A stretch of 64,000 bases of DNA from Gammaproteobacteria bacterium (GCA_012103475.1 WLWS01000002.1:618081-682080), one strand, 5' to 3'. Positions 5,195-50,644 are shown, numbered from the stretch's first letter. Numbers and translations are program-made. The notes: generated from the sequence alone by a model not told the origin.

Positions 5195-5408
5195 ACGATA
5201 CTCGGTGATAAAGCTATGGAAACAAAAGATCTGGGTTGAATTGAAACGATACTGGCAAATGCTGCACTCGTGCTATCAAAGCGAGAGCGCGGATTATAGG
5301 GTATTTTTCTATTCAATGCTTGTCAATCAGACCTCCGCGGAAGAATTTTCGCAATAAGCCGGATTGCATGATAAATTTATACCTGTTTACTTATCTGAGA
5401 GCCAGAAT

Positions 5409-6008: not shown

Positions 6009-6029
6009 TAGAAAGGCGAGAATATTACT

Positions 6030-11103: not shown

Positions 11104-14100
11104 ATGTCGGCAACCTTATCAGTGCAGCCAAGTTCACCATTTGCCAGTGAGCAAAAAACCGAAAATATCAGGTTCATAACAGCAGCCAGTCTCTTTGATG
11201 GACATGATGCTGCAATCAATATTATGCGCAGGATACTGCAAGCATCTGGTGCAGAGGTCATACACCTGGCTCACAACCGTTCAGTCTCTGAAGTTATCGA
11301 CGCCGCCTTGCAGGAAGACGTACAGGGAATCGCCATTAGTTCTTATCAGGGTGGTCATATGGAGTATTTCAAGTACATGATAGATATGCTGCGAGAAAGT
11401 GGGGCCGCGCATATTAAGGTTTTCGGTGGTGGGGGAGGAGTCATCGTTCCAACCGAAATCGAGGAACTGCACAATTATGGGGTGACGAAAATATTTTCTC
11501 CGAATGACGGCCAGAAATTAGGACTTCAGGGTATGATTGATTCAATGCTGGAGCAGTGTTCTTTTGATTCTGATCTGCTTGTGCCTAAAACACTCAAAGA
11601 ACTAGGTTCGGGAGACAGATGTACCCTTGCTCGTGAAATAAGTGCTCTGGAAAATGATCATGTTGTTCAAACTGTGCGTGACGAAATCAGTAAAAGTGTA
11701 ACAGAATCAAGCAAAAAAACGCCTGTTTTAGGGATTACCGGCACCGGCGGGGCAGGCAAATCATCGCTTACTGACGAAATCATTCGACGCTTTCGAATTG
11801 ACGCTGAAGATCAGCTCAGAATTGCAATACTCGCTATAGACCCAACACGACGCAAAACCGGTGGGGCATTACTCGGTGATCGTATTCGAATGAACGCGAT
11901 CTATCATGAGAACATTTTTATGCGTTCGCTGGCAACGCGTGATTCAGTTTCGGAAGTTCCACCTTATCTACCAGACGTAATCAATGCCTGCAAGCTCTCT
12001 GGCTTTGATTTGATAATAGTAGAGACACCGGGTATTGGTCAGGGCGATGCGGGTATTGTCCCGTTTGTCGATACTTCATTATACGTAATGACACCTGAAT
12101 TCGGAGCGGCAAGTCAATTAGAGAAAATTGATATGCTTGATTTTGCCGATGTAATTGCGATCAACAAGTTTGACCGGAAAGGAGGAGAAGATGCTTTACG
12201 AGATGTAAGTAAACAGTTGCAGAGAAATCGTATGGCTTTTGAGCAATCCGTCGAAGAAATGCCGGTTTTTGGCACTATTGCGTCTAAATTTAATGATGAT
12301 GGCGTAACGGCCTTATATCAGGAAACACTCAGAACGCTACAATCCAAAGGACTTAAAGATTTTGATAACATACTACCCGTCCAGAGCGTAAAAACTTCCA
12401 GCGAAACCACGATTATTGTTCCTGCCGCAAGACAGCGTTATTTGGCGGAAATTGCCAGCTGCGTACGCGATTATCACGTCACTGTTAAAGAACAAGTGGT
12501 ATTTGCTAGAGAACGGCAGCAATTACAGGAAAGCCGGAGAATGCTGGCAAGCGAATCGAGTACGATAATCGATGAACTAGATAAGCTTATTGAAAAACGC
12601 TCGAATCAACTGGATTCTCGTGCCAGTAAACTTCTTGAAAACTGGCCACAGCAAAAAAAGGATTATAGTGGAGAGTTTTTTTTCAGCCAGAGTCGCGACA
12701 AAAAAGTCCGAACAAATTTGATAACGACGACTCTTTCGGGGACCAAAATCCCCAGAGTGATTTTGCCTGAGTATGAGGATGATGGAGAAATCTTGAAGTG
12801 GCTATTACTGGAAAACGTGCCTGGACGATTTCCTTTTACAGCTGGCGTATTTCCCTTTAAGCGAGAAGGTGAAGATCCGACACGCATGTTTGCCGGCGAA
12901 GGCGATCCCTTCCGTACGAATAAACGCTTTAAAAAATTATCCGAACATTCCAGTGCTAAACGACTGTCAACGGCATTTGATTCTGTAACACTCTATGGTT
13001 TCGATCCAGATGAACGTCCTGATATCTACGGCAAGGTAGGCAATGCCGGGGTCTCGATAGCAACGCTGGACGATATGAAAGCACTTTATGATGGCTTCGA
13101 TCTCTGTTACCCGGCAACATCTGTTTCGATGACGATAAATGGTCCGGCTCCGACCATACTGGCAATGTATCTCAATACTGCCATCGATCAACAAGTCGAA
13201 AAATTCATAGAAAAAAATGAATCAGAACCATCGGAAACTGAGCTTAAAGAAATCAGAGATTTTGCCTTAAGGAATGTTCGAGGAACGGTACAGGCTGATA
13301 TTTTAAAAGAAGATCAGGGGCAGAATACATGCATCTTTTCAACTGAATTCAGTCTGAAAATGATGGGCGATATCCAGCAGTATTTTATTGATGAGCAAAT
13401 CAGAAACTTTTATTCAGTTTCAATCTCCGGATATCACATTGCAGAGGCGGGGGCCAACCCAATCTCGCAATTGGCGTTTACGCTGGCTAATGGCTTTACT
13501 TTTGTCGAAGCTTATCTGGCCCGAGGTATGGATATTAATGATTTCGCTCCTAATCTGTCGTTCTTTTTTTCCAATGGTATGGATCCTGAGTACACAGTTC
13601 TTGGGCGCGTGGCGCGGCGCATCTGGTCGACTAGCATGCGATTTAAGTATGGTGCCAATGAAAGAAGCCAGAAATTGAAATACCACATACAAACATCCGG
13701 ACGGTCGCTGCATGCACAGGAAATGGCGTTTAACGATATTCGCACAACACTGCAAGCTTTGATCGCGATATATGATAATTGCAATAGCCTTCATACTAAT
13801 GCCTATGATGAAGCCATTACTACTCCAACTGAAGAATCTGTTCGTCGGGCGATGGCTATACAATTAGTTATAAATAAGGAATGGGGGCTTACCAAGAATG
13901 AAAACTCCAATCAAGGGGCTTTTATTATTGAAGAATTGACCAAGCTTGTTGAAGAGGCAGTATTGCAGGAATTTGAGAGGATATCTGAACGAGGAGGCGT
14001 TTTAGGCGCAATGGAGACCGGCTATCAGCGTGGCAAAATCCAGGATGAGTCGATGCTTTACGAACACAAAAAACACGACGGCAGCCTACCTGTTATTGGT

Positions 14101-14376
14101 GTGAATACTTTTCTTAATCCAGCTGAGCCTGAAAAATTCGAAATTGAACTGGCGCGTTCAACAGATTCCGAAAAACAAAGCCAGATTAAACGACTAGAAC
14201 AATTTAAAGATAAACATTCTGAATCATCTGTATCTGCGTTAGGTAAACTGCGTCAGGCAGCCATAAGTAATGATAATATTTTTGACGAATTAATGAACGC
14301 AGTACGCTGTTGCAGTCTGGGACAGATCACAGATTTGTTTTTTGAAATAGGCGGACAATATCGCCGAAATATGTGA
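11104..14376 (+). CDS. icmF: Fused isobutyryl-CoA mutase IcmF (B12-binding domain, MeaB-like G-protein, mutase catalytic domain)
   Basis: 1090 aa. N-terminal B12 domain ([10 protein letters not shown]), central P-loop GTGGAGKSS with INKFDRKG, and a C-terminal methylmalonyl-CoA-mutase-like barrel. Length and domain order match IcmF. Confidence 0.9.
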
Positions 14377-14391: not shown

Positions 14392-15576
14392 TTATTTTAC
14401 CAGCGAACCGAGATCGGCGAAGGCAGCAATAATCTTCTCTATTTGCTCGTCTGTGTGAGCAGCACTAACACTGCACCTGACCAGGCATTTTTTTCCAGGC
14501 GCTGCAGGAGGAAATACAAGGTTCACATAAACCCCGTGTTCCAGCAGGCCACGCCAGAAAGCAAGAGCTTGTTCTTTGGTATCCAGCATTACAGCAACAA
14601 CTGTGCTGATTTCAGGTCCTAGTTCATAATTCAGTTCGCTCAAACCCTCATACAGTTTTTGAGCATTGTTCCATAATTTCTTGCGTAGATGCTTTCCATC
14701 TCTAAGTATAGGCAGAGCCGCTCGCGTCGATGCAATTACCGAGGGTGAGGGGGATGCTGTAAAGACATAGGGTCTGCTGGCATAGCGTAGAAAATCAAGT
14801 TCAGGATGATTACTTGCACAATATCCACCTATGCTACCAAGACTTTTACTAAAGGTCCCAACCACGAAATCCACTTCATTCAGAACCCCACATTCTTCTA
14901 TGAGTCCCTGACCAGTCTCACCAAGCACACCCAACGAATGAGCCTCGTCAACCACAAGCAAACTGGAATATTTTTTCCTTACCTCTATTATCTCTTTTAA
15001 CGGAGCTCGATCACCGAGCATACTGTAAATTCCTTCAATAATGATGAGGGCATTGTTGGCGCGCTCGCCAAGGCGGGCAAGTCTTTTATCAAGATCTTCC
15101 GCGTTATTGTGGCGAAAACGGACAACATCCGCACCGCTTAGTTTACAACCGTCATAGATACTCGCGTGACAGTCAGAATCAATAACGATAACATCCCCAG
15201 CCTGCGTCAAACCTGAAATTACTGCGAGGTTAGCCTGATAACCTGTGGTAAATACAATGGCAGAACGCATCTGGTAAAACTCGGCCAGTTCTTTTTCAAG
15301 AGCCCGGTGTCCTGCGAAACTTCCGTTAGCCATTCGTGAGCCAGTGGTTCCCGTTCCCTGCTCATCAATAGCTTTGTGGGCAGCCTGCAGACATTCTGCA
15401 TTAAAAGTTAACCCTAGATAATTATTGGTACCGGCAAGTATGATTCGTCGCCCATCAATGCGAGCTTCTGTAGGAGAGTAAACTTCTTCTATGGGTGTGC
15501 CAAATGGATCAAAGCCGACTGATAACAACGCCTCTCTATCACTTGCCAGTGAGGAAAACTTATCGAAAAGGCTCAT
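14392..15576 (-). CDS. PLP-dependent alpha-oxoamine synthase, serine-palmitoyltransferase-like
   Basis: 394 aa. PLP-lysine region GTFSKSLGSIGGY and DEAHSLGVLGETGQG resemble bacterial SPT (GTFSKS.G..GG, DEAHS.G) more than BioF or Kbl. ATGA overlap with the upstream ACP gene. Confidence 0.85.
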   Translation of the reverse strand: MSLFDKFSSLASDREALLSVGFDPFGTPIEEVYSPTEARIDGRRIILAGTNNYLGLTFNAECLQAAHKAIDEQGTGTTGSRMANGSFAGHRALEKELAEFYQMRSAIVFTTGYQANLAVISGLTQAGDVIVIDSDCHASIYDGCKLSGADVVRFRHNNAEDLDKRLARLGERANNALIIIEGIYSMLGDRAPLKEIIEVRKKYSSLLVVDEAHSLGVLGETGQGLIEECGVLNEVDFVVGTFSKSLGSIGGYCASNHPELDFLRYASRPYVFTASPSPSVIASTRAALPILRDGKHLRKKLWNNAQKLYEGLSELNYELGPEISTVVAVMLDTKEQALAFWRGLLEHGVYVNLVFPPAAPGKKCLVRCSVSAAHTDEQIEKIIAAFADLGSLVK

Positions 15577-15827
15577 TCTGCTTTTGGTCCGAGTTCATGA
15601 ATTCGTTTGGCCATATCTGCGACTGTGCGGACATCAGCTAGCACATTCATAGGTATAGAAATATCAAATTCATCTTCAACTTCGAGCAGAAGATCCAATA
15701 CCTTAAAAGAGTCAAGGCCGAGACCATCAACCAGCTCGGTTGACTCATCAAATTCGGCATTGAGCTCGGCGACAGTTTCAAGTTGCTTGTTTAAGCGTCG
15801 AAGAACTTCATCATAACTTGCAGACAT
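15573..15827 (-). CDS. Dedicated acyl carrier protein
   Basis: 84 aa, acidic, with phosphopantetheine site LGLDSFKVLDLL. Translationally coupled to the SPT-like gene. Confidence 0.85.
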   Translation of the reverse strand: MSASYDEVLRRLNKQLETVAELNAEFDESTELVDGLGLDSFKVLDLLLEVEDEFDISIPMNVLADVRTVADMAKRIHELGPKAE

Positions 15828-15843
15828 ACAGTATTTTTCTTTT

Positions 15844-16761
15844 CTATAATTGCAATAAATCAGGTGTATTCATGGCATCCGCTAATGTTATTGTGGGCGA
15901 CCAGCCCAGTGTGTTTGTCAGTGGGTGATTGTCACACACCCAGTTTAAATGAGTAATTTCCCTGACTTTACCCGGAGTCAGCATCGGTGAGTAACCGAGC
16001 AGTCTGGACATCTTTAAGTTAATTTTCGCGAATACCTCTAACAGTGGAACAGGAATAGGAATTCTGACCACTGATTTCCCCCAGACCTGATTTGTTAATT
16101 GAATCAGGGTCTCCCAATTATAACCATTCAGACTTCCATCATCCAATTCATAAATTCCTCCTGGGAAAGATTTCTGTTCGAGCCACATTCTAATAGCCAC
16201 GACTAAATCATCTATATGCAGCAAACTGAATTGCGATTGCGTATCCGGGGCAGGCAAAAAACCAGCTTTTAGTGATTTCAGTAAAGGTTTTATTTCTTTA
16301 TCCCCGGGACCATATATGGCAGTCGGCCGAAAAATTGTGGTCAAAACATTATTCTTTCGGGTAATCAATTCCGCCTCTGCCAGTCTTTTGCTTTTTGCAT
16401 ACCAGGAAAGTTGTGGCTCTCTTGCCGCGAGTGAAGATATGTGCAGAAGACGAATACGGGTGTTCTTAGATTGACAGGCGTTTAACAAATTAATACTGCC
16501 TGTGTTGTTGATTGAAACGAATTCCTTCAGTGAACTACCACGTACCGCCCCGGCACAATGAATGACGGTATCGACATTTTCTACGAGAGCATTTAATTGG
16601 GGTAAAGAGTGGAGGTCTCCGACTATCCAGTGAAGATTTTCTGTATCTTGCTGTTGTTTTCTACTAAGGGCTTTTACCCGAAATCCATGCTGAAGTAGGT
16701 CAGCGAGAATGGTTTTGCCTATGAATCCCGTGGCTCCGGTAAGTGCCACATATCCGGGCAT
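15844..16761 (-). CDS. NAD(P)-dependent epimerase/dehydratase-family reductase (extended SDR; CerR-like candidate keto-reductase)
   Basis: 305 aa with an N-terminal Rossmann motif TGATGFIGK. It sits between the FAAL and ACP genes. Confidence 0.8.
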   Translation of the reverse strand: MPGYVALTGATGFIGKTILADLLQHGFRVKALSRKQQQDTENLHWIVGDLHSLPQLNALVENVDTVIHCAGAVRGSSLKEFVSINNTGSINLLNACQSKNTRIRLLHISSLAAREPQLSWYAKSKRLAEAELITRKNNVLTTIFRPTAIYGPGDKEIKPLLKSLKAGFLPAPDTQSQFSLLHIDDLVVAIRMWLEQKSFPGGIYELDDGSLNGYNWETLIQLTNQVWGKSVVRIPIPVPLLEVFAKINLKMSRLLGYSPMLTPGKVREITHLNWVCDNHPLTNTLGWSPTITLADAMNTPDLLQL

Positions 16762-16765
16762 GTGC

Positions 16766-18523
16766 TCAGGAACTAACCAAGCTCAGCTTGTGGTTTGCTT
16801 CCTGATTCCAGTCCGCTCTTTCCATAAAGCCCTTTCGTGCGGCTACCCGTGAGAGCTTACCTGAGGATGTTCTTGGCAGTGTATGTTGCTTAACGAGTTC
16901 GACAACACAGTGTATACCAAAGCTTTCATAAACAAGTCTCTGCAATATGGAAATCAACGATTGTCTTTCAGAGGTTTTTGAAATTCTGCACTCGACGACC
17001 AGAACGACAGTTTGTTCTTCTTCTGTATCTTCTATTCCAAAAGCAGAGGCATCGCCCATTCGAATCTCGGGTTGCTGTTCTGCAAGTTCTTCAAGATCCT
17101 GAGCTCTGATATTGCGTCCATTAACGATAATTACGTCTTTTCGGCGTCCGCTTAAATAGAGATTTTCTTTGAAGATGTAGCCCAGATCACCAGTATCCAG
17201 CCATCCGTCTGCGCAAAGTACGCTATCTGTGGCTTCCTGATTGTTGAGATATCCTTCCATCAGACTCGGCCCACGCATCAGCACTCGTCCAATACGTAGA
17301 TCAGGTTGCAGTTCACCTGCATCGTTAACAATTTTGATTTCATGTTCAGGAAGCGCTTTACCGCAATTAACAATAGAGTTAATTTTTCTATTGTCAGATT
17401 GCACTCGTACAGCAACGCCTCGTTCTGCCAGAGCAAGTGCATCAATTACCATGACATCAAGACCTTCGCCAAGCGGAGAGAACGAGGCTGCAAGTGATGC
17501 CTCCGCAAGACCATAGCAAGGCAAAAAGGCCTTATCACTAAAATCTGCTGGTTTCAGGACAGAAGCAAAGTTATCAAGAATGCTGGGGCGAATCATTTCA
17601 GCACCAACACCGGCGACACGCCAACAACTAAGATCCAATTCGGCAAAGTCAGACTCTCTAACACGACGAGCACACAGTTCGTAGCCAAATGGCGGGCTGA
17701 AAGCGATGGTACATCGATTACGACTGATTAACCTGAGCCACTGCAAGGGTCGGATCGCGAAATCTCGTGTACGGATATAATCGACGGTCAACTGCGATAC
17801 GATTGGCCCTAAAACGAAGCCAACCAGACCCATATCGTGATAGAAGGGCAACCATGAAGCACATCTATCCCCGTCTTGCACTTCCAGGCCGCTACGAACA
17901 ATACCCTGCAAGTTACTCATAATAGCCCGTTCGCTGATAACTACACCTTGCGGGAATCGGGTACTACCAGAGGTAAACTGTAAATAGGCAGGCTCGTCAG
18001 TGGAGTTCACAGTAAACTCGACGTCCGCTTTTTCGAGTTCTTCTAATTGTCTTGCAGTACCAACCCATTTGATGTGATCTACATCTGCAGCAGCTTCCTG
18101 AAGAAAACCCTCGAATTCTTCCGGTGCGATTGCAATTGATGCTTCACCGCCGCGAAGTAAGCCGGTTAATTGTTGTACATAAATTTTATGACTGCCTAAA
18201 TTGACCGGAACAGGCATCGCGTATGGTAATAAGCCTGCGTAGCGGCAGGCAAAAAACAATACAATAAAATCGGCTTCTGTATCTGCAATTAAGGCCACAC
18301 GTTCGCCTTTTGTAAGACCTAATTTTAAAAGTCTTTGTGCAGAATCTTGAGCCCTTTGCTGAAGTTTTTTATAGGTGAGTACGTCTCTAAGCTTTCCCCG
18401 TGCATCAAAAAAATTGCAACCGGTTACACCTGAGGCCGCGTAATCTAAAGCTTCAGTGAGCGTATCGAAATCTGCTAATCGCCTCGGCAGAGTATTTATA
18501 GTTTTTGTTACGTCTTCAATCAC
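16766..18523 (-). CDS. Fatty acyl-AMP ligase / acyl-ACP synthetase
   Basis: 585 aa with FTSGSTRFPQGVVISE (a FAAL-type variant of the AMP-binding motif), GWLDTGDLG and a GTG start. First gene of the four-gene operon. Confidence 0.85.
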   Translation of the reverse strand: MIEDVTKTINTLPRRLADFDTLTEALDYAASGVTGCNFFDARGKLRDVLTYKKLQQRAQDSAQRLLKLGLTKGERVALIADTEADFIVLFFACRYAGLLPYAMPVPVNLGSHKIYVQQLTGLLRGGEASIAIAPEEFEGFLQEAAADVDHIKWVGTARQLEELEKADVEFTVNSTDEPAYLQFTSGSTRFPQGVVISERAIMSNLQGIVRSGLEVQDGDRCASWLPFYHDMGLVGFVLGPIVSQLTVDYIRTRDFAIRPLQWLRLISRNRCTIAFSPPFGYELCARRVRESDFAELDLSCWRVAGVGAEMIRPSILDNFASVLKPADFSDKAFLPCYGLAEASLAASFSPLGEGLDVMVIDALALAERGVAVRVQSDNRKINSIVNCGKALPEHEIKIVNDAGELQPDLRIGRVLMRGPSLMEGYLNNQEATDSVLCADGWLDTGDLGYIFKENLYLSGRRKDVIIVNGRNIRAQDLEELAEQQPEIRMGDASAFGIEDTEEEQTVVLVVECRISKTSERQSLISILQRLVYESFGIHCVVELVKQHTLPRTSSGKLSRVAARKGFMERADWNQEANHKLSLVSS

Positions 18524-18752: not shown

Positions 18753-19214
18753 TCATTTCCAGTTTGCAGGCAAAAAATCAGTAATCTTTTGATTCATTGC
18801 CTCACTTGTCTCATTTTTGCAGGCAAGGTCCGGAGGACCCGGCCAGGCTTTGTCTTCAAACTCAACCCCTTCAAAAACTTTTTTGTCTGCGTACCTCGGG
18901 ATAACATGAAAATGGACATCCGGATCGACCATCATTAGCATCAAGTAGTTCAATTTGTCGTAGTCGAATGTCTTTTTCAAACAAGTTTCAATATCAACCG
19001 TTACCTGTCCAAGTTCAGCAAAGCTGGCTGCACTTAAATCAGAGAAGGCTTTTACAGGCTCCAAAGCCGCTAAAACCAAGGCACCCAGAGTCGCTTGTTG
19101 AGGTCTTAACATGACAAGCCAGTGCTGATAGTGGTAAATACAGCTATCTGGCGCACCAAACTTCAACATTGTTGCGTTCAATGCTTGCGTGTCAAGATTA
19201 AGATTATCTGCCAT
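18753..19214 (-). CDS. HIT-family nucleotide hydrolase/transferase
   Basis: 153 aa. The histidine-triad region reads DVHFHVIPR: the first His is replaced by Asp, and the nucleophile-position His is retained. Confidence 0.75.
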   Translation of the reverse strand: MADNLNLDTQALNATMLKFGAPDSCIYHYQHWLVMLRPQQATLGALVLAALEPVKAFSDLSAASFAELGQVTVDIETCLKKTFDYDKLNYLMLMMVDPDVHFHVIPRYADKKVFEGVEFEDKAWPGPPDLACKNETSEAMNQKITDFLPANWK

Positions 19215-19454
19215 CTATATGAATAATATAATAAAAAAAATGGATTGCACTCAAATATTTTAAACACCTTTTAGCCTGCATTGCGGCGGAAACTTCATCC
19301 GTTCATTTGTCTTGAACCCGATTACCCTGGAACTGTGCTAACGTCGCTATTGTTCAGCGAGCCTGACATCGAGTCAGGGTTGGATAATATCTTTGTGGTA
19401 AAGTGTGATGCTTCGTCGGTAATATTGATAAATATAATAAGAACAAGGACTTAA

Positions 19455-20306
19455 GTGAATAGTAAAATGAACACTGGGGTTGACGAACAGAAATTTGTAG
19501 CCATCGTATTGGCGGGCGATCGTAGTAATGCTGACCCGGTTGCAGCTCATTCCGGGACAAGTTGTAAGGCGGTGGCCGATATATACGGAAAACCGATGGT
19601 GACTCGAGTGCTCGATGCTCTCCAGGCAAGTGGCAGAGTTAAATCGATAATTCTGTGCGGTCCAGCTCAGACTGGGCTGGACGAGTGCCCCGAGTTACTC
19701 AATCGTATAGAAACAGACGGTATTCAATGGCTTCGGAATTCGGAATCCCCGAGTCGCAGTGTCGAAACGGCGCTCGAGCTTGTCGATGAGTCAGAACCGG
19801 TTTTTCTCACGACTGCCGATCATGCTTTGTTGTCGGCTGATATTGTCAGGTATTTCTTAAGTGAAGCTCTTGATAATCAAGTGGATTTTAACGTCGGGCT
19901 GGTTGATTACTCTACAGTACAGAGCGCCTACCCGGAGGTAAAACGTACTGTCATCAAGCTTAAAGAAAAAGGAGTTTGCGGTTGTAACCTGTTTGCCATA
20001 ATGACTCTTGAGGGACGGAAACTAGTCTCGTTCTGGCGCAATGTGGAACAATCTCGTAAAAAGCCCGCAAAAATGCTTGCAGGCGTGCTGGGTGTAGGTG
20101 GTGTCTTGTCTTATCTGTTGCATAGACTGACTATTGAAGGTGCGCTTGAAAAAGTCTCGAGTAGACTGGGTGTCAAGGTAAAGCCCGTGATTCTGCCCTT
20201 TGCCCGGGCCGGAATTGATGTTGATACCGTCAAAGACAAACTTCTGATAGAAAAAATACTCGCTAATGACTCAGTGACAGTTTCAAGTGAAAAACCTGCT
20301 AACTAG
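19455..20306 (+). CDS. MobA-like (NTP_transf_3-type) nucleotidyltransferase with a C-terminal extension
   Basis: 283 aa. FVAIVLAGDRS...GKPMV pattern. AAGGA lies 5 nt upstream of the GTG at 19455; an alternative ATG is at 19467. Confidence 0.65.
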   Translation: MNSKMNTGVDEQKFVAIVLAGDRSNADPVAAHSGTSCKAVADIYGKPMVTRVLDALQASGRVKSIILCGPAQTGLDECPELLNRIETDGIQWLRNSESPSRSVETALELVDESEPVFLTTADHALLSADIVRYFLSEALDNQVDFNVGLVDYSTVQSAYPEVKRTVIKLKEKGVCGCNLFAIMTLEGRKLVSFWRNVEQSRKKPAKMLAGVLGVGGVLSYLLHRLTIEGALEKVSSRLGVKVKPVILPFARAGIDVDTVKDKLLIEKILANDSVTVSSEKPAN

Positions 20307-21040
20307 CTAATATTTGAAGGGGCGAGAATTTCCTGAGCGGATTCCAAATCATGGATGAAGTCAATTTCTGCCCAGCGATGCCCGGATATTGAGCAAGACG
20401 TGACTTTTCCATCTCGTGCCATAGCATCGACAACTGACAGAAACCAGGACTTTAAGCCTGAGGGTTTACGCATAGCATTTTCGACCGAATTTCTAAATTG
20501 GCGTGGGCCGTCACCACGGAAATAGAGCATGCCGATCGATTCCGCGTGAGTTTGCTCTGGACTGAGGATTTTGCTGACCCCTTTGACTTGCCTGTCTTCT
20601 AATGTGACTTTCATATCATCTTCATCGTACTTTTCCTTGAAATCTATCGTCAGGGTTACCGGGGCAGACTCTGATTTTAAAACATGTTCCAATAAAGATG
20701 TTTCATACACGGTGTCGCCATTAATTAGGAGAAAATCCTCATTCATCTCCTGGCGAGCAAGCCAGCAACTTGCCAGATTGTCTGAAACATTGAAGAAAGG
20801 GTTAAAAACAAATCCTATTTGAGGTTTATCCGCATAGTTTGAATCGAGTAAGTTCTCGACTTGTTCACTATGAAATCCGGTAATAATGCTGATTTCTGTA
20901 ACATTACAGGCAAGAAGCGCATCCAATTGCCACTGCAGCACTGATTTGCCTGCAATTTCCAACATGCATTTCGGACAGTTTTCGGTCAGAGGTAAAAGCC
21001 TGCGCCCTTGCCCTGCGCTAAGTATTATCGCTTTAGTCAT
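20303..21040 (-). CDS. Sugar/alcohol-phosphate nucleotidyltransferase (LicC/IPCT-like cytidylyltransferase fold)
   Basis: 245 aa. N-terminal AIILSAGQGRRLLPLT...PKCML signature. Its 3' end overlaps the convergent gene by 4 nt. Confidence 0.8.
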   Translation of the reverse strand: MTKAIILSAGQGRRLLPLTENCPKCMLEIAGKSVLQWQLDALLACNVTEISIITGFHSEQVENLLDSNYADKPQIGFVFNPFFNVSDNLASCWLARQEMNEDFLLINGDTVYETSLLEHVLKSESAPVTLTIDFKEKYDEDDMKVTLEDRQVKGVSKILSPEQTHAESIGMLYFRGDGPRQFRNSVENAMRKPSGLKSWFLSVVDAMARDGKVTSCSISGHRWAEIDFIHDLESAQEILAPSNIS

Positions 21041-21170: not shown

Positions 21171-22244
21171 ATGACCAAGATAGAACGTTACATATTCCTT
21201 GAGGTACTTAAGCCTCTTGCCGCAGTCCTAGGAATTCTGGTTGGATTATTTGCCTGTTTTAGCAGCGCTCGCTATCTGGCTGAAGCAATAACGGAAACTC
21301 TTGGTTTGGCGCTTATGCTCAAGCTGGTGTTTTTGAAAACAGTCATTGCACTTGAAGTTCTGGTTCCGGTGGCGCTCTATGTCTCAATTATTATCGGTCT
21401 TGGACGTATGCATCGTGATCAGGAAATAATTGCCATGCGTGCAGCTGGCATTCGTGGCACCCGGATAATCCGGGCTATCCTCTGGGTCGCGATTCCTGTA
21501 GGACTAATTGTTGGCTTATTGTCCGTGATAGGCAGGCCCCTGGCTTATGCCGATAGTTATTTACTGGACGCCAGAGCCAATGCGGAATTAAATACGGATA
21601 GATTCCAGGCCGGTCGTTTCTACGGAAATGAGGACAGCGGCAGAGTAGTCTACATTAACAAAAAGAACGAATCTTCAGGGCAGATGAGTGAGATATTTCA
21701 TTACATTGACAAGCACGATGCGAAGGAGATTATCGTTTCAACTCGTGCTACCCAACAAGCTGCGCAAGACGGGCTTCGCAATGAACTTCATCTCTTTGAT
21801 GGCACCATCCACAGGTTGATGTACGGAGAAGAAAAGGATGAAGTGATTACTTTTGAAAAACTGGTTTTGTATATCGACAATGCCGAAGAGGATATTGGTT
21901 ATAAAAGAAAAGCCGCCGCAACCGTCGACTTGATCCATTCGGAAGAAGCCAATGATGTGGCGGAATTGCAATGGCGTCTGTCAAGGCCCTTAGCTACGCT
22001 CTTACTAGCTCTGATAGCTGTGCCACTAAGCAAATCTTCTCCTCGACAGGGCCGGAACGAGAAAATATTCACCGCAGCGATGATATTTGCTCTCTATTAC
22101 AATATAAGCGGGCTTGCTCGCACCTGGGTGGAGCAGGGAGTAGTAGGGAGTTTTCCGGGAATTTGGTGGCTGCAAGTAGTACTTGTTGTTCTTGTCGCGA
22201 TAATGTTACTGCCTGAATTCAGAACTGGGAGACGTGTCCCATGA
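21171..22244 (+). CDS. lptF: LPS export ABC permease LptF
   Basis: 357 aa. MTKIERYIFLEVLKP... N-terminus and YjgP/YjgQ-type topology (3 TM, periplasmic domain, 3 TM). ATGA coupling to lptG. Confidence 0.85.
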   Translation: MTKIERYIFLEVLKPLAAVLGILVGLFACFSSARYLAEAITETLGLALMLKLVFLKTVIALEVLVPVALYVSIIIGLGRMHRDQEIIAMRAAGIRGTRIIRAILWVAIPVGLIVGLLSVIGRPLAYADSYLLDARANAELNTDRFQAGRFYGNEDSGRVVYINKKNESSGQMSEIFHYIDKHDAKEIIVSTRATQQAAQDGLRNELHLFDGTIHRLMYGEEKDEVITFEKLVLYIDNAEEDIGYKRKAAATVDLIHSEEANDVAELQWRLSRPLATLLLALIAVPLSKSSPRQGRNEKIFTAAMIFALYYNISGLARTWVEQGVVGSFPGIWWLQVVLVVLVAIMLLPEFRTGRRVP

Positions 22245-23305
22245 CTCTCCTGGAAAATTATATTGTCCGCCAAATTGGAGCAGGGCTCGCCATATCTGCA
22301 GCGGTTTTAATACCTTTGTTCAGTTTTCTTGACCTTATTGAACAGCTCGATGATGTCGGAGAAGGCTTCTATCGAACTAGAGATGCCTTTATTTATGTGA
22401 TCTACCTTCTCCCAAGACGATTTATTGAATTGGCGCCTTTTATTGCATTATTGGGAACCGTGATCGGTCTTGGAAGGTTGGCTGTTAATCTGGAGTTAAT
22501 TACCATGCGTGCGGCTGGTCTGTCACCCATGCGAATTAGTCTGGTTGTGCTCAAAGTGGGTTTTTTCCTACTCATTTTATTGACTGTGCTGGAACAATAT
22601 GTCGCACCAAAATACCAGCAAAAAGCGATATCTCATCGTGCTGAAGCACTGGCGCAAAGTGCAGAGTTAGGAAGTGATCTCGGCACCTGGACTCGCGATA
22701 AGAGTCAGGTTTTACGAATTGGAGAGAGTGCGCCGGGAAGTCTGATGCGTGATATTGAGATAATGACCTTTGATCAAGATGGATCTTTGAGGGAACACCT
22801 AAATGCGGAATACGCTGAAATAGTTACCGCAAGTGAATGGGAGCTCTCAAACGTCACTCGCAGAAAATTTTCCAAAAGAAGTCTCGAGACCAGCCATTTT
22901 GAGAATATTCTCTGGAGACCTTTTCTTAATTCTGAGCAGATGGCGACTTTAAACAGACCAGCTGAAAGTTTGTCACCGGTGGAGCTATATCAATACGTTA
23001 GCTATTTGAAAAAAACCGGACAGAAGTCCGATGCTTATGAACTGGCTCTTTGGCGTAAATTCGGCGGCGGACTGGTCACCATTGCCATGCTCTTACTTTC
23101 TGTACCCTTCGTATTCGGTTCGGTGCGAGGTGGCATTGCTAACAGACTGGTCCTGGCAGGAATTACCGGGATTTGCGTTTATTTGCTTGACCAGATTGCA
23201 GCAAACGTTGGCTTACTACTGGATCTTAGCTTTCCTCTTGTTGCCCTTGCGCCAGGATTGATCCTGATCTGGATAGCGGTGGCGTGGCTACAACGTATCG
23301 CCTAG
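22241..23305 (+). CDS. lptG: LPS export ABC permease LptG
   Basis: 354 aa. LENYIVRQI..., LELITMRAAGLSPMRI, and the same topology as LptF. Confidence 0.85.
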   Translation: MTLLENYIVRQIGAGLAISAAVLIPLFSFLDLIEQLDDVGEGFYRTRDAFIYVIYLLPRRFIELAPFIALLGTVIGLGRLAVNLELITMRAAGLSPMRISLVVLKVGFFLLILLTVLEQYVAPKYQQKAISHRAEALAQSAELGSDLGTWTRDKSQVLRIGESAPGSLMRDIEIMTFDQDGSLREHLNAEYAEIVTASEWELSNVTRRKFSKRSLETSHFENILWRPFLNSEQMATLNRPAESLSPVELYQYVSYLKKTGQKSDAYELALWRKFGGGLVTIAMLLLSVPFVFGSVRGGIANRLVLAGITGICVYLLDQIAANVGLLLDLSFPLVALAPGLILIWIAVAWLQRIA

Positions 23306-23327: not shown

Positions 23328-24320
23328 TCAGGCGGCCGGAAGATTAAGTTCAAATTCTTTAAGCACAGAATATGATTCTGCCTCGATTTCCAATCGGCGC
23401 GACTGAACTCGCAGGCTCCACCCTTCAGGAATTCTTTCAATTTCATATAGATTATAACCGGATCGTTTACTCGTTGAAGTTGAGAGAACTGAGGCAGAAG
23501 CAGCCCCAATCACAGGTATTTTCAATTTATCACTCTGCAGAAAATCCCAAACCGGATAGTGGCCATGTCCATGAACAATCAACTCCGCGCCATGGGAGAC
23601 AATTGATTGTCGAAATTCATGAGCATCTCTGAGTCTTTTTCTAAACTTATTACTAGTCTGCAAAGGACCGTGATGAAGCATCACAATTCTGAACAGGCCC
23701 ATTTTTTTTGTTTTCACCAGTAATTGCTCAAGGTCCTGAATTTGTTTTTGGCCCAACTCACCGGTAGCAAAAAAAGGCGAAGTTGGCAGTGCTGTGGACA
23801 GACCAATTATTGCCAGCGGTCCACGTTGTCTAAAGCTGGGGAAAAGCGGGGGCTTATGATTGTCAGAATTGACACTGTCACTTGCTATATAGTCTGACCA
23901 CAGGCCAAAAGTCCGGCTTATATCATCTTTTGTGTAGTAATCGTGATTTCCGGGAATAAGCGAGATATTTTCCGCTGTGCCAAGATCCGACAACCAGCTT
24001 CTGACCTGTCGACATTCTGCAGCAGTTCCGATGTGAGTAAGATCTCCACTGATGAGCAAATGCCCAAGCTCATTGGAACTGAGATCGTTAAGTAACTTGT
24101 CTAGAATATCCAGACGTTGAATATGTCGGCGCGAAAACCTCCAGGACAAATAACCCAGTATTCGTTTGCTCAGTAACTGCTGCCAGCTTACACCGCTCAG
24201 ATCACTTAAATGCGGATCAGAAATATGGGCTATACGGACGGGGCCGACGCCATTATTAGCAGATGGGGGTAAAAATTTCATCATGCCTGTATCATATCGT
24301 CCGAATTTACCAATAGCCAC
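23328..24320 (-). CDS. Calcineurin-like metallophosphoesterase
   Basis: 330 aa. Motifs ISDPH, GDLTH, GNHDY, MLHH and GHGH. The track start at 24320 is GTG; an ATG at 24284 (MMKFLPP) is a plausible alternative. Confidence 0.8.
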   Translation of the reverse strand: MAIGKFGRYDTGMMKFLPPSANNGVGPVRIAHISDPHLSDLSGVSWQQLLSKRILGYLSWRFSRRHIQRLDILDKLLNDLSSNELGHLLISGDLTHIGTAAECRQVRSWLSDLGTAENISLIPGNHDYYTKDDISRTFGLWSDYIASDSVNSDNHKPPLFPSFRQRGPLAIIGLSTALPTSPFFATGELGQKQIQDLEQLLVKTKKMGLFRIVMLHHGPLQTSNKFRKRLRDAHEFRQSIVSHGAELIVHGHGHYPVWDFLQSDKLKIPVIGAASASVLSTSTSKRSGYNLYEIERIPEGWSLRVQSRRLEIEAESYSVLKEFELNLPAA

Positions 24321-24352: not shown

Positions 24353-25561
24353 ATGAATACATTATATGTTTACCTGCTGAAAGATACGGAGACGGTTTTG
24401 TGGGGTTTGAGTGGGAAATCCCGACTCGTTCGCATGCTCGAATCAAAAGCAGGGATGGTTCTTGTAGAGTCCCTGGATGAGATTCCGGATGAATCCTGTG
24501 TTCTATTGTTGCTCAGTGATTACCTGTATGACCCGCGTATTTTGAGCAATTTGATGTCTGGTTCTGAGCAACTTGCCCTTAAGGCAAGTACTGAAGAAAA
24601 CATTGTGGCGGCAAAGGTTGTTGTAATTAATGCCCGCCAGGCCAGTCTGGAGTTGTCAGGAAAATCGGAATTCAGTTTGCTTTCTGAATTACCGTCTGTA
24701 CTGCCTGAAGAACTTGTTAAAGCATATGATGCGAAGTTACTTAAATACGATCCCCCAGAAATATTAGCAATCAATGAACAAAACAAAACTCAGCTCGAAA
24801 ATGAATTATTCAATGGTTCTTACAAGGGTATCACCGATATCGTTACCAAATGGCTTTGGCCCTTACCGGCAAAGGCAGCTGTCAAATTCTGTGTCAAACA
24901 GGGTCTTTCTGCAAATCAGGTAACATTATTCAGTTTTGTTTTGGCGCTTCTGGCAGGTTTCGCTTTTGCTTATGGATTTTTCATTTCCGGCCTGATGATG
25001 GGTTGGTTAATGACTTTCCTGGATACTGTGGATGGTAAATTGGCTCGAGTGACTGTCAGTTCAAGCAAAATCGGCGATATACTTGATCATGGACTCGACC
25101 TCGTTCATCCACCACTATGGTATCTGGCCTGGGCCCTTGGAATAGCAGGTGTCTGGATGTCACCGACTCTGGTGATGCCTATGTTCTGGATTATTCTACT
25201 GGCCTACATTGGTGGTCGTTTTTGCGAAGGCGCTTTTGATCTCTGGATAGCACCTTTTCGTTTATTCCTCTGGCAACCATTTGATTCATACAATCGTCTG
25301 ATCACAGCCCGACGCAACCCTAACATGATTTTATTAACAGCCTCATTATTTTTTGACCGCCCGGATCTTGGACTTTACTCAGTTGCAGCCTGGCACGTTT
25401 TCTCCACAATAATTCTTTTCATCAGAGTTATTATGGCTATGAAAGAGAAAAAACGGGTGGGTGAACTGGAAACATGGCTCAACACTATTGACCCGGTAAA
25501 TGATCTCGGCCGTCTTGAAGTTCGCCTGTTTACGCGGCTTTCCAAATCCAGTCTGGTGTAA
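24353..25561 (+). CDS. CDP-alcohol phosphatidyltransferase with an N-terminal extension of about 150 aa
   Basis: 402 aa. The family motif D-G-x2-A-R-x8-G-x3-D-x3-D is seen as DTVDGKLARVTVSSSKIGDILDHGLDLVHP, with multiple TM helices after residue 170. Confidence 0.8.
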   Translation: MNTLYVYLLKDTETVLWGLSGKSRLVRMLESKAGMVLVESLDEIPDESCVLLLLSDYLYDPRILSNLMSGSEQLALKASTEENIVAAKVVVINARQASLELSGKSEFSLLSELPSVLPEELVKAYDAKLLKYDPPEILAINEQNKTQLENELFNGSYKGITDIVTKWLWPLPAKAAVKFCVKQGLSANQVTLFSFVLALLAGFAFAYGFFISGLMMGWLMTFLDTVDGKLARVTVSSSKIGDILDHGLDLVHPPLWYLAWALGIAGVWMSPTLVMPMFWIILLAYIGGRFCEGAFDLWIAPFRLFLWQPFDSYNRLITARRNPNMILLTASLFFDRPDLGLYSVAAWHVFSTIILFIRVIMAMKEKKRVGELETWLNTIDPVNDLGRLEVRLFTRLSKSSLV

Positions 25562-25566
25562 ATAGT

Positions 25567-26556
25567 ATGACTGAGTATACGCAACAGCGATTCCGTAAAA
25601 TCGGAATTCTGTGCAATCCGAAAGCGGGCAGGGTCAAAAACAAAACCGGAGAGATAAGAGCCCAATCAGAATCGCTTCCCGGTGTCGCTTATCGCGAAGC
25701 GCGAGTCCCTGAAGAATTTGCAATAGTGATTAAGGAATTCGTTGCGTTAGAAATTGATTTGTTTGTAATTATTGCCGGTGACGGTACTATTCACGCGGTA
25801 CTGACACAAATTTTCAACGCGCACCTTTTTCAAACCACCCCTGTCTTGTCATTTGTTCCTGCGGGAACAACGAATATGACAGCACTCGATAGTAAGATGA
25901 ATGGCAAGCCCGAATTAGTTTTGGCCAGATTAATTCAACAGTTAAAAGAAGGTAGTCAGCCTCAGATAAAAACGCAGAAACTAGTCAAAGTGCAATGTGG
26001 TAAAACAGAAAGCCAGTACGGCTTTTTCCTCGGGATCGGTGTAATCGCAGAGGCGGTAGCTTATTTTCAGAACAATATTAAAAAAACCGGGTTGACAGGC
26101 GAGGGGGCTTCGGCAATTGTTTTTATTCGTTTTCTGTTAATATTGGTTTTCAATCGACGTCAAATAAACCAATCAATAATCGAGCTTCACTCGGATGATT
26201 TCCAATTCAATCAAGGTCCCTGTCTTGTCTTGCTCATTAGTTCTTTACACAGACTTTTGTTCGGAATGAGACCTTATTGGGGGTCTGAAACTGGGGCACT
26301 TCATATGACCCTTGTCAGTGAACCACCACGAAGATTATGGCGTTCGTTGTTTGCCTTATTGAATGGCAAAGGACATCAACTATCTGAAGAAGATGGCTAT
26401 TCGAGTCACAATGTGAACAAAGTGTCTATTAAGATGAAAGGTAAATACGTTATTGATGGAGAGATATATTCGGTATCACCCGACGCAATGGGGATTGAAG
26501 TAAGTGCCGATACCTCTGTGTCAATTTTACAGCCTGAGGAGCTCCTCCGTGCCTGA
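25567..26556 (+). CDS. Lipid kinase of the DAGK catalytic / LCB5 family (diacylglycerol, sphingosine or ceramide kinase-like)
   Basis: 329 aa. Motifs ILCNPKAGR, VIIAGDGTIHAVL and PAGTTNMTA. Confidence 0.8.
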   Translation: MTEYTQQRFRKIGILCNPKAGRVKNKTGEIRAQSESLPGVAYREARVPEEFAIVIKEFVALEIDLFVIIAGDGTIHAVLTQIFNAHLFQTTPVLSFVPAGTTNMTALDSKMNGKPELVLARLIQQLKEGSQPQIKTQKLVKVQCGKTESQYGFFLGIGVIAEAVAYFQNNIKKTGLTGEGASAIVFIRFLLILVFNRRQINQSIIELHSDDFQFNQGPCLVLLISSLHRLLFGMRPYWGSETGALHMTLVSEPPRRLWRSLFALLNGKGHQLSEEDGYSSHNVNKVSIKMKGKYVIDGEIYSVSPDAMGIEVSADTSVSILQPEELLRA

Positions 26557-27511
26557 TGCTGTCAATAACCTGGCCCCACCTGCGGCTCTGGTTGCAGAAA
26601 AAGCATCTGAATGTGCGCGAGTCGTACCTGGTGGCTTTCATGTTTTTGTCGGAGCTCTGGAGAAACATTTCGGAGAATCGCTGCAAGCGGTGCTTTTGTA
26701 TGGTTCCTGTCTCCATAGCTATGATCTTAAAGACAGTGTGGTCGACCTCTATGTGTTGGTTGACGATTATGACAAAGCCTACACTAGCTCATTATTCTCA
26801 TACTTGAACAAGATTGTTCCACCAAACGTGTTTTATCTTGAATTGGAACATGAAGGAATGACCCTGCGTTGTAAGTATGGAGTAATAACACTGAGTGATT
26901 TCGAAAAGGGTGCATCTTCATGGTTTCACTCTTATATCTGGGGCAGATTTTCACAACCGGTCCGATTACTTTATTTTCGAAATGAAGACGCAAGATTAAA
27001 AGTGTTAGAGACACTGGCTCAGGCTACTATTACGTTTTTGCGCGCCACTGTGCCAGCTCTTGGAAGAAGTGTCGTAGATACTGAAACAATCTGGAGTCGC
27101 GGTCTCGCGCTTTCATATAATGCAGAGCTTCGTCCTGAGCAAAAAAACAGGGCGCGGCAACTAACACATCTGAACATGGGTGATTATATTCGTCTTACTG
27201 CTTATTCACAGGAAATGATTGAACTGCTTGAAGCTTTACCACATGACAGATACAACTGTACAGCAAATGAAAAAGAGTGCCTTCGGGCATTACGTAAATG
27301 GCGTTTTCGAAGATGGCAGGGCAGAGTGTTGTCTGTTATGCGCTTAACTAAAGCAGTATTTACTTTCAGAGACTGTGTCGACTATGCCGCGTGGAAAATA
27401 GAAAGACATACAGGAATAAAAATTGAGCTTACTACCCGACTACGTAATCATCCGATCTTATTCGGTGGGAAAGTGCTGTGGCAGTTGATAAGGCAAGGAG
27501 TAATGCACTGA
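26504..27511 (+). CDS. Tam41/Mmp37-like nucleotidyltransferase (phosphatidate cytidylyltransferase-like)
   Basis: By eye, its blocks align with yeast Tam41 blocks. LLYGSC matches GYGSG, VDLYVLVDD matches IDIILGV, NVFYLE matches GVYFNPF, RCKYGVITLSDF matches VKYGVVSMETL, SYIWGRFSQPVRLL matches FYLAGRLQKPVKIL, and LSYNAELRPE matches LSYAGDIRY. The start is uncertain: GTG at 26504 gives a 53-nt overlap, while GTG at 26549 gives an 8-nt overlap with the kinase stop. Confidence 0.65.
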   Translation: MPIPLCQFYSLRSSSVPDAVNNLAPPAALVAEKASECARVVPGGFHVFVGALEKHFGESLQAVLLYGSCLHSYDLKDSVVDLYVLVDDYDKAYTSSLFSYLNKIVPPNVFYLELEHEGMTLRCKYGVITLSDFEKGASSWFHSYIWGRFSQPVRLLYFRNEDARLKVLETLAQATITFLRATVPALGRSVVDTETIWSRGLALSYNAELRPEQKNRARQLTHLNMGDYIRLTAYSQEMIELLEALPHDRYNCTANEKECLRALRKWRFRRWQGRVLSVMRLTKAVFTFRDCVDYAAWKIERHTGIKIELTTRLRNHPILFGGKVLWQLIRQGVMH

Positions 27512-27532: not shown

Positions 27533-28285
27533 ATGCAGACTGAAGCACCAAATAAGAAAAAACGCAAGCACCGCACGAGTGTGGCTGCTGGTTTGTGGCT
27601 GATTAAGCGAATAGAAAAATTTCTAATGCGCTATTCCGAGTTTCAGGATCAACCCTTTCTCGACGTGCAGAAGTTTAAATGGCATGAGTCATTAGAAACG
27701 GACTGGAAAAAAATAAGACTGGAACTGGACAACATCCTCCAGCACCCGGAAACAATTCCAAACTTTCAGGATATTTCTAAAGATCAGACAAATCTGACTA
27801 AGGACAATCACTGGAAATCATTCTTTCTATTCGGTTATGGCTATAAGTTTGAGCCAAATTGCGAATTGTGTCCGGAAACGACAAAACTGGTTGAATCAAT
27901 ACCCGGAATGTTCACGGCTTTTTTTTCAATACTATCCCCAGGCAAACATATACCCAGACATCGGGGGCCGTACAAAGGTTTATTGCGTGGTCACCTGGGA
28001 CTCATTGTCCCCGAACCAAAAGAAGAATGCTGGATACAGGTGGGAGAGGAAAAGGCGAACTGGCAGGAAGGTAAGTGTTTGGTTTTTGATGACACCTATA
28101 AACATCAGGTCCAGAACAATACAAATGGAACGCGAGTTGTCTTGTTTCTTGATGTTCTCAGACCGCTTCGTTTCCCGGGATCTGTGGTCAACAAACTGAT
28201 CCTTCAATTAATCAGAATGTCACCTTTTATTCAGGATGCCAGACGAAATCAAATTGCCTGGGAGAAGCGACTAGGTGATGATTGA
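27533..28285 (+). CDS. Fe(II)/2-oxoglutarate aspartyl/asparaginyl beta-hydroxylase family protein (LpxO/OlsC-like lipid acyl hydroxylase)
   Basis: 250 aa. Motifs ILSPGKHIPRHRGPYKGLLRGHLGLIVP, W.EGKCLVFDDTYKH and TRVVLFLD. Last gene of the plus-strand lipid operon. Confidence 0.8.
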   Translation: MQTEAPNKKKRKHRTSVAAGLWLIKRIEKFLMRYSEFQDQPFLDVQKFKWHESLETDWKKIRLELDNILQHPETIPNFQDISKDQTNLTKDNHWKSFFLFGYGYKFEPNCELCPETTKLVESIPGMFTAFFSILSPGKHIPRHRGPYKGLLRGHLGLIVPEPKEECWIQVGEEKANWQEGKCLVFDDTYKHQVQNNTNGTRVVLFLDVLRPLRFPGSVVNKLILQLIRMSPFIQDARRNQIAWEKRLGDD

Positions 28286-50459: not shown

Positions 50460-50644
50460 ATCTTCTCTCCTGATTATCTCCTATGTGTTTCGGCCTCTTC
50501 CCTCCAAAACTTTATTATTAACAATCTCTTATACTCTAACTAATAATTTAAAGATTACGACCCCGGATGCCGATACATCATTAGTGATGACTATAAGGTG
50601 AGGACCTTTGAGTCTTTCAATAAGCTGGCTTTTTAAGGATATAA

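Follow-up and report, generated by a model that had tools for sequence, protein, structure and literature searches.

Three adjacent plus-strand genes in a 64,000-nt stretch of DNA (hereafter, the window) from an uncultured gammaproteobacterium (GCA_012103475.1, WLWS01000002.1:618081-682080; GC content ~45%) encode a cytidine diphosphate (CDP)-alcohol phosphotransferase, a lipid kinase of the DAGK_cat family and a homolog of Tam41, and raise the question of which lipid such a combination of enzymes would produce. A preliminary description of these genes had put forward a CdsA-independent, mitochondria-like route to phospholipids, in which the three proteins would form a self-contained relay of kinase, cytidylyltransferase and transferase. 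The analysis described here points elsewhere: the trio quite probably represents the cpgA-cpgB-cpgC module within a phosphosphingolipid locus of proteobacteria, of the ceramide phosphoglycerate (CPG) type. This identity is proposed because the domains and motifs, the Caulobacter-like gene set, the conserved gene order and the pairing of the kinase with the Tam41-like protein (CpgC) all agree. All coordinates given below refer to the window.

The gene trio and its boundaries

Gene calling in the window yielded three adjacent plus-strand open reading frames (ORFs), 24353-25561, 25567-26556 and 26504-27511, the third of which is listed here from its likely start codon (aa, amino acids); a hydroxylase gene follows the trio:

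24353-25561, plus strand: cpgA-like CDP-alcohol phosphotransferase, 402 aa (PF01066 CDP-OH_P_transf, 32.2 bits, cut-off 22)
25567-26556, plus strand: cpgB-like putative lipid (ceramide) kinase, 329 aa (PF00781 DAGK_cat, 47.8 bits)
26549-27511, plus strand: cpgC-like Tam41-fold protein, 320 aa (PF09139 Tam41_Mmp37, 27.2 bits, cut-off 24)
27533-28285, plus strand: Asp/Asn beta-hydroxylase family protein, OlsC/LpxO-like Fe/2OG hydroxylase (PF05118, E = 1.4e-54)

The families, strand and motifs attributed to the three genes in the preliminary description, as well as the 5-nt spacer between cpgA and cpgB, are confirmed by the ORFs, the Pfam matches and the motifs themselves. The CpgA-like protein contains a complete signature, DTVDGKLARVTVSSSKIGDILDHGLD, which conforms to D(x2)DG(x2)AR(x7-8)G(x3)D(x3)D, and the kinase carries the AGDGT and PAGTTN motifs. 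The overlap noted between the kinase gene and cpgC exists as well, but its extent depends on the start codon: in the longest ORF, which begins at 26504, it amounts to 53 nt, whereas from the GTG at 26549 to the kinase stop it is 8 nt. The latter codon is the likely start because it opens the gene both in the database call and in all homologs (product MPDAVNNL..., 320 aa) and a GAGGAG sequence lies 8 nt upstream of it.

The operon extent originally given, 24353-27511, holds for the trio, but the operon probably also includes the hydroxylase gene, which begins 21 nt past the end of cpgC and is located 3' of cpgC in seven related gammaproteobacterial loci (L001, L004, L017, L039, L063, L072 and L078). 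The hydroxylase scores 261.8 bits with the OlsC model of NCBIfam and 150 bits with the LpxO model, both under the respective cut-off; judging by its sequence family, it is probably a ceramide acyl hydroxylase. In Caulobacter, ceramide is hydroxylated by a DesA-type enzyme, which this OlsC/LpxO-like protein may replace without being its ortholog. Scans for promoters and terminators were uninformative, with counts near those in shuffled sequence. The arrangement of the trio itself is far beyond chance because the identical gene order is kept in dozens of genomes.

Proposed orthology with the Caulobacter cpg genes

The Caulobacter genes cpgA-cpgB-cpgC are CCNA_01217-01219 (CC_1159-1161). For CpgB (CCNA_01218), ceramide kinase activity has been proven biochemically, and the enzyme phosphorylates diacylglycerol (DAG) in vitro as well (PMC10331486). 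Deletion of cpgC results in the accumulation of ceramide phosphate and no CPG, and deletion of cpgA leaves CPG in place with the loss of CPG2 (PMC9393093). CpgD (CCNA_01210) forms CDP-glycerate from cytidine triphosphate (CTP) and phosphoglycerate and is thereby the source of the proposed CpgA donor (PMC12275187), CC_1153 and CC_1158 contribute to CPG2 formation (PMC11324152), and the LptF2/G2 paralogs are required for sphingolipid transport.

These data speak against a linear relay from kinase to cytidylyltransferase to transferase, in that the cpgA deletion strain still makes CPG and CpgA acts one step later (PMC12275187). The phospholipid route independent of CdsA is likewise not supported, in view of the surrounding genes for serine palmitoyltransferase (spt), acyl carrier protein (ACP) and the reductase CerR, and of the Caulobacter counterpart, which makes ceramide phosphoglycerate (PMC9393093, PMC11324152). 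Of the two substrates initially considered for the trio, ceramide is retained and DAG is disfavored, given the same spt/ACP/cerR locus.

The connection between the window and Caulobacter runs through Nitrosomonas eutropha, in which Neut_1101-1106 have been published as orthologs of CC_1153, CC_1156, CC_1155, CC_1159, CC_1160 and CC_1161, respectively. CpgA, the kinase and CpgC of the window are 48, 31 and 50% identical to the N. eutropha proteins (loci L045 and L046), the match of CpgA being Neut_1104 by position, and the N. eutropha trio is in turn 41, 25 and 32% identical to that of Caulobacter (E = 5e-75, 2e-22 and 2e-38). A 21-mer taken from a published primer for deletion of cc_1161, searched as an exact string, had chance matches on three unrelated contigs, none of which carries cpg homologs.

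Family placement of CpgA and the kinase

CpgA consists of an N-terminal cytoplasmic domain of ~170 aa and a membrane domain with the DxxDGxxAR...GxxxDxxxD signature, which is invariant across the family. The top matches of the CpgA sequence in the PDB are AF2299 and IPCT-DIPPS, and the AlphaFold2 model (predicted local distance difference test score (pLDDT) 86.7; helices in residues 163-369) aligns over its full length with AF2299 (Foldseek, E = 6e-11, template modeling (TM) score 0.58/0.68) and with IPCT-DIPPS. The N-terminal 170 residues show a weak match to the IPCT fold and matched no Pfam family. We take AF2299 and IPCT-DIPPS to belong to the branch of the superfamily with soluble CDP-alcohol donors, and the likeness would agree with CDP-glycerate as the donor of CpgA. 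The best NCBIfam matches of CpgA are the archaetidylinositol-phosphate and DIPP synthase models, far under their cut-offs, and no PgsA, PssA or Cls equivalog is among its NCBIfam matches. Assignment of CpgA as the phosphatidylglycerophosphate synthase PgsA was rejected: the model was not matched, and CpgA is a protein of 402 aa with an additional N-terminal domain, compared with ~180-200 aa for PgsA.

The kinase, too, falls below the equivalog models, scoring 39 bits with TIGR00147 (cut-off 118.65) and 19-27 bits with the DgkB and YegS models (cut-offs >270). A YegS/DgkB-type assignment was rejected accordingly, the equivalog cut-offs being missed and the general DAGK_cat domain alone being matched.

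Predicted Tam41 fold of CpgC

Several independent comparisons bear out the original assignment of the third protein as Tam41-like. Besides the Pfam match, the AlphaFold2 model of CpgC (pLDDT 89, predicted TM score 0.87) retrieves Tam41 structures as all of its top five Foldseek matches (Schizosaccharomyces pombe 6IG4 and 6IG2 and the Firmicutes protein 7ECD; E from 1e-8 to 1e-7, TM scores 0.47-0.59), with the next fold family, the aminoglycoside nucleotidyltransferases, at a TM score of ~0.27. A PDB search with the single sequence gave weak Tam41 matches (E = 0.06-0.2), and a profile of the CpgC family finds S. pombe Tam41 (6IG2) at E = 1.3e-4, the block W..Y.W.RF.QP of CpgC aligning with W..Y.aGRFqKP. 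On the strength of the model, CpgC can be confidently predicted to combine a nucleotidyltransferase (NTase) domain with a winged-helix/helical domain in the Tam41 fold. The view of Tam41 as a mitochondrial enzyme, adopted in the preliminary description, is outdated, bacterial homologs being known (PDB 7ECD; PMC11646218).

The NTase motif of CpgC, YGS-x12-D66, contains a single invariant acidic residue, with an invariant tyrosine, Tyr68, at the position of the second carboxylate. With a single acidic residue out of the canonical three, Tam41 itself is active (PMC11646218). Over >1000 cluster representatives, neither the GS motif nor Asp66 nor the W..Y.W.RF.QP block varies, and CpgC has an invariant C-terminal block of its own, DYAAWKIERHTG.

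Co-occurrence, gene fusion and the two modules

The Tam41-like protein has 3513 database homologs, and at the 50% cluster level its family has 1140 representatives, of which 343 have E <= 1e-30. The genomes with the nearest CpgC sequences are metagenome-assembled genomes (MAGs) of uncultured Gammaproteobacteria (72-74% identity), followed by Nitrosomonadaceae (~50%). Iterated profile searches were run across all ORFs of 184 loci and the window, with context counts limited to ±10 kb around the loci:

Close loci (n = 80): kinase gene directly 5' of the Tam41-like gene in 73, plus 5 with the two fused; CpgA within ±10 kb in 68, directly 5' of the kinase gene in 59
Distant gammaproteobacterial loci (n = 25): kinase gene directly 5' of the Tam41-like gene in 16; CpgA within ±10 kb in 0
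Sphingomonadales loci (n = 78): kinase gene directly 5' of the Tam41-like gene in 71; CpgA within ±10 kb in 13

Overall, the kinase was found in ~95% of the loci. Among the 80 closest, Nitrosomonadaceae and gammaproteobacterial loci display the order NTP_transf_3-lptF-lptG-cpgA-cpgB-cpgC, collinear with the window, and in 61-65 of the 80 the lptFG pair separates the NTP_transf_3 gene from cpgA. The trio is thus a conserved and widespread unit, and the co-occurrence that had been proposed as a check extends well outside this genome. CpgA is often missing beside the pair of the kinase and the Tam41-like protein, which is at variance with a self-contained relay of three genes.

The association between the kinase and CpgC culminates in their fusion as one 664-aa ORF (kinase, residues 16-332; CpgC part, residues 353-663) in five Nitrosomonas assemblies, one of them that of the isolate N. 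supralitoralis APG5; the library of representatives also contains such a fusion (P0122). The five fusion ORFs are:

L061: 8969-10963
L065: 8942-10939
L069: 8942-10939
L076: 8945-10939
L079: 8945-10939

The fusion ties the two steps functionally. In Sphingomonadales, CpgA, where present, accompanies the HIT, cpgD-like and NTP_transf_3 genes. This distribution suggests that CPG and CPG2 formation are separate modules: a core of the kinase and CpgC, responsible for CPG formation, and an accessory set of CpgA and nucleotidyltransferases, responsible for CPG2. Such a two-module layout agrees with the genetics of Caulobacter and speaks against a linear relay of three enzymes.

The Novosphingobium and Croceicoccus loci show a cpgD-like-HIT-cpgA block divergent from cpgB-cpgC-NTP_transf_3 (L126, L138, L141, L143, L145, L147, L155, L165, L171 and L177), and most other Sphingomonadales loci contain cpgB-cpgC alone within 10 kb. 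A scan seeded with P0129, a high-GC sequence, covered Arhodomonas, Salinisphaera, Thiogranum and a few Sphingomonadales, and an Erythrobacter-led profile scan contributed 80 Sphingomonadales loci out of at least 591 relatives; Caulobacterales were absent among these 80 loci.

The sphingolipid locus around the trio

The genes upstream of the trio include a ceramide backbone operon and the counterparts of the Caulobacter accessory genes:

14392-18523, minus strand: predicted ceramide backbone operon (Pfam AMP-binding, Epimerase/NAD-binding, PP-binding and Aminotran_1_2), comprising the next four genes
14392-15576, minus strand: serine palmitoyltransferase, spt (Aminotran_1_2)
15573-15827, minus strand: ACP, 84 aa (PP-binding)
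15844-16761, minus strand: CerR-like reductase (Epimerase/NAD-binding)
16766-18523, minus strand: acyl-ACP synthetase (AMP-binding)
18753-19214, minus strand: HIT-family protein, CC_1157-like (PF01230, 22.6 bits, cut-off 21.5)
19455-20306, plus strand: MobA/CofC-like NTP_transf_3 protein, CC_1153-like (PF12804, E = 7e-14)
20303-21040, minus strand: cpgD-like sugar-phosphate-type nucleotidyltransferase (PF00483 and PF12804)
21171-22244, plus strand: lptF (PF03739; TIGR04407/TIGR04408, ~312 bits each for lptF/lptG)
22241-23305, plus strand: lptG (PF03739; TIGR04407/TIGR04408, as for lptF)
23328-24320, minus strand: calcineurin-like metallophosphoesterase, CC_1158 superfamily (PF00149, E = 5.9e-12)

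The order of the backbone operon is that of CC_1165-CC_1162 in Caulobacter, and linkage of the spt, ACP, cerR and acyl-ACP synthetase genes to the trio recurs in L039, L063, L072 and L081-L099. All five accessory families of CPG2 formation (CpgD-type, MobA/CofC-like, HIT, phosphoesterase and LptFG) are present between 18753 and 24320. The top PDB match of the cpgD-like protein is LicC, a CTP:phosphocholine cytidylyltransferase (E = 4e-13), and its sequence displays a GQGRRL loop, the lysine of PKCML and the aspartate of INGDT; Neut_0268, its counterpart in N. eutropha, shares 44% identity with CC_1152. On this evidence the gene is a candidate for a CTP:phosphoglycerate cytidylyltransferase; no solved CpgD structure was found in the PDB copy searched. 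The NTP_transf_3 protein is 49% identical to the product of the N. eutropha gene located directly 5' of lptF, namely Neut_1101, the CC_1153 ortholog. The HIT gene accompanies the cpgD-like gene and cpgA in many other loci; in Caulobacter, CC_1157 has been set aside as probably unrelated to the pathway. The HIT protein of the window has a variant triad, DVHFHVIP, with Asp in place of the first His. The metallophosphoesterase gene is divergent from cpgA, and its position is kept in gammaproteobacterial loci; a weak NCBIfam match of its product to an anti-phage model (57 bits, cut-off 420) was dismissed as not meaningful.

LptF and LptG of the window exceed the NCBIfam equivalog cut-offs as canonical proteins, whereas the sphingolipid paralogs of Caulobacter are very divergent. 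Neither an LptC2 or flippase gene nor an inositol-phosphate synthase gene was found within the window. In the closest MAGs (L001:1689-2840, L002 and L017), the gene for bCerS, the N-acyltransferase of the CC_1154/Neut_1100 type, is located between the HIT and NTP_transf_3 genes; the same site in the window (19215-19454) is a 240-bp spacer with no bCerS remnant. Unrelated neighbours include an IcmF-like fused B12-dependent acyl-CoA mutase with a MeaB GTPase domain (11104-14376), the alpha and beta subunits of nitrile hydratase (5364-6698) and an EAL/HDOD protein beside a PAS-GAF-GGDEF diguanylate cyclase (49221-52165).

Proposed pathway and alternative interpretations

In the proposed pathway, the products of the neighbouring spt, ACP, cerR and acyl-ACP synthetase genes would make ceramide, with bCerS encoded outside the window, and the kinase would turn ceramide into ceramide-1-phosphate, as suggested by the biochemistry of the Caulobacter ortholog. 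The Tam41-fold CpgC would then be needed for ceramide-1-phosphate to become CPG, a requirement known from Caulobacter genetics. At this step CpgC could act as a CTP:ceramide-1-phosphate cytidylyltransferase that makes CDP-ceramide, the ceramide-phosphate of which would be passed to glycerate or phosphoglycerate by a further enzyme; candidates are a housekeeping CDP-alcohol transferase, CpgA acting redundantly and CpgC itself. The fold, the fusions and the energetics speak for this activity and for CDP-ceramide as a real intermediate, to which we give slightly less than an even chance. CpgA would add a second phosphoglycerate to yield CPG2, a step supported in Caulobacter by genetics, with soluble CDP-glycerate supplied by the cpgD-like protein (20303-21040) as the proposed donor, and would not consume the CDP-lipid. 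The hydroxylase probably acts on an acyl chain, and transport of the lipid to the outer membrane probably falls to LptFG.

A CDP-activated sphingolipid, which the preliminary description had presented as new biochemistry, has a precedent in the "NDP-ceramide" (nucleoside diphosphate-activated ceramide) proposed by Olea-Ozuna et al. (2024), who also reported the Tam41/Mmp37 InterPro domain for CC_1161 homologs of alpha-, beta-, gamma- and deltaproteobacteria. The mechanism of CpgC was still described as unidentified in May 2026.

Several observations weigh against the reconstruction outlined above. We know of no transferase for the step that would follow CDP-ceramide, and the term "CDP-ceramide" is absent from the literature searched. 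The PF09139 match of CpgC is partial, covering profile positions 68-178 of 322, and its score is just 3 bits over the cut-off, which 5 of 13 diverse family members reach by themselves. bCerS was not found in the 64 kb with two queries, down to E = 50, so that either ceramide is supplied through a gene located outside the window or the pathway is incomplete. Orthology between the window and Caulobacter rests on the N. eutropha chain, with 48/31/50% identity in the first link and 41/25/32% in the second, and the head group in this organism is a prediction from orthology.

These points leave room for interpretations that differ in the substrate, the head group or the role of CpgC. A glycerophospholipid pathway, in which the kinase would produce phosphatidate from DAG, the Tam41-like protein would replace CdsA as a CDP-DAG synthase and the CDP-alcohol phosphatidyltransferase would use CDP-DAG, appears very improbable. 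It is compatible with the in vitro activity of Caulobacter CpgB, which phosphorylates DAG about as well as ceramide, with the formation of CDP-DAG by a Firmicute Tam41 (PDB 7ECD; PMC11646218) and with the use of CDP-DAG by the majority of PF01066 enzymes. However, alpha-, beta- and gammaproteobacteria alike carry the genes within spt/ACP/cerR loci, the Caulobacter cpgB deletion leaves phosphatidate unchanged, and cpg mutants lose sphingolipid species rather than phospholipids; CpgA, moreover, matches no PgsA, PssA or Cls equivalog, has as its nearest structures enzymes that presumably use soluble CDP-alcohols, and is missing beside many of the kinase/Tam41-like pairs. Somewhat less improbable, but still unlikely, is the same architecture acting on ceramide with another head group, e.g., phosphoglycerol or phosphoinositol, in which case the cpgD-like protein would activate a different phospho-alcohol. 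The best matches of this protein are LicC and IPCT-type enzymes, the substrates of which are varied, the strongest matches of CpgA are inositol-phosphate transferase models, identity to the Caulobacter enzymes is moderate and known via N. eutropha only, and the lineage has added a hydroxylase and a phosphoesterase. Against this stand the retention of the full accessory set (HIT, MobA/CofC-like and CpgD-like), the 44% identity of the N. eutropha counterpart to CpgD, and the lack of an inositol-phosphate synthase gene in the window.

The most serious doubt concerns CpgC itself, which, rather than being a cytidylyltransferase, might use its fold for another reaction, e.g., the direct transfer of a glycerate-containing group onto ceramide-1-phosphate, or serve as a non-catalytic partner of the kinase; this is unlikely on balance, yet clearly a stronger contender than a change of substrate or head group. 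CpgC has lost two out of three canonical NTase carboxylates, but Tam41 is active with one (PMC11646218). The most invariant block of CpgC, DYAAWK[IL]ERHTG, and a long C-terminal helix fall outside the Tam41-aligned stretches, and the TM scores to Tam41 are only about 0.5-0.6; against this stands the invariance, described above, of the GS motif, of Asp66 and of the W..Y.W.RF.QP block shared with Tam41. A scaffold role would likewise be consistent with the fusion of CpgC to the kinase, and no downstream CDP-ceramide transferase is known to us, but formation of the phosphodiester needs an activated intermediate. The ceramide phosphoglycerate assignment of the trio as a whole, quite probable as it is, carries within it the more tentative proposal that CpgC is a cytidylyltransferase.

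Implications

CPG2-type anionic sphingolipids can partially substitute for lipid A in the Caulobacter outer membrane and set polymyxin sensitivity. In the window, which comes from an uncultured gammaproteobacterium of marine type, the same predicted machinery is almost complete and lies in one contiguous stretch, and the collected loci show its spread through Nitrosomonadaceae, other Gammaproteobacteria and Sphingomonadales. The conversion of ceramide-1-phosphate to CPG, which needs CpgC, is the sole step of the pathway without known chemistry. If the proposal is true, CDP-ceramide would be the first nucleotide-activated sphingolipid and a counterpart of CDP-diacylglycerol, an idea already in print (Olea-Ozuna et al., 2024). 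The mechanism of this step is now readily testable. For the most part, the present results amount to a correction of annotation, because databases give the genes of the trio names such as "phosphatidylglycerophosphate synthase", "hypothetical protein" and "mitochondrial phosphatidate cytidylyltransferase".

Comparison with known systems

At the level of individual proteins, CpgA shares with AF2299 and IPCT-DIPPS of Archaeoglobus the N-terminal cytoplasmic domain, the six-helix membrane domain and the signature, but identity is ~15% and the acceptor proposed for CpgA is a sphingolipid, with CDP-glycerate as the proposed donor. CpgC resembles Tam41/Mmp37 (6IG2/6IG4 and 7ECD) in the NTase and helical/winged-helix fold, the single active-site carboxylate and the W..Y..GRF.(K/Q)P block; it differs in the low identity (13-17%), the partial Pfam match and the extra C-terminal block. 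The substrate of Tam41 is phosphatidate, whereas the genomic context of CpgC points to ceramide-1-phosphate.

At the level of the locus, the Caulobacter region CC_1152-CC_1165 has the same A-B-C order, the same three protein families, linkage to spt, ACP, cerR and acyl-ACP synthetase genes, and the same accessory families as the window. The window operon contains an OlsC/LpxO-like hydroxylase, whereas Caulobacter uses an unlinked DesA-type enzyme; unlike Caulobacter, the window is without bCerS, LptC2 and the flippase gene, and its lptFG genes are canonical-looking rather than divergent. Neut_1100-1106 of N. eutropha are the closest match in arrangement: NTP_transf_3-lptF-lptG-cpgA-cpgB-cpgC are collinear with the window, with mostly 45-52% identity (~31% for the kinase). 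In N. eutropha, bCerS precedes this block, and spt and the cpgD/HIT genes reside at distant loci, whereas in the window all genes but bCerS are contiguous and a phosphoesterase and a hydroxylase have been added.

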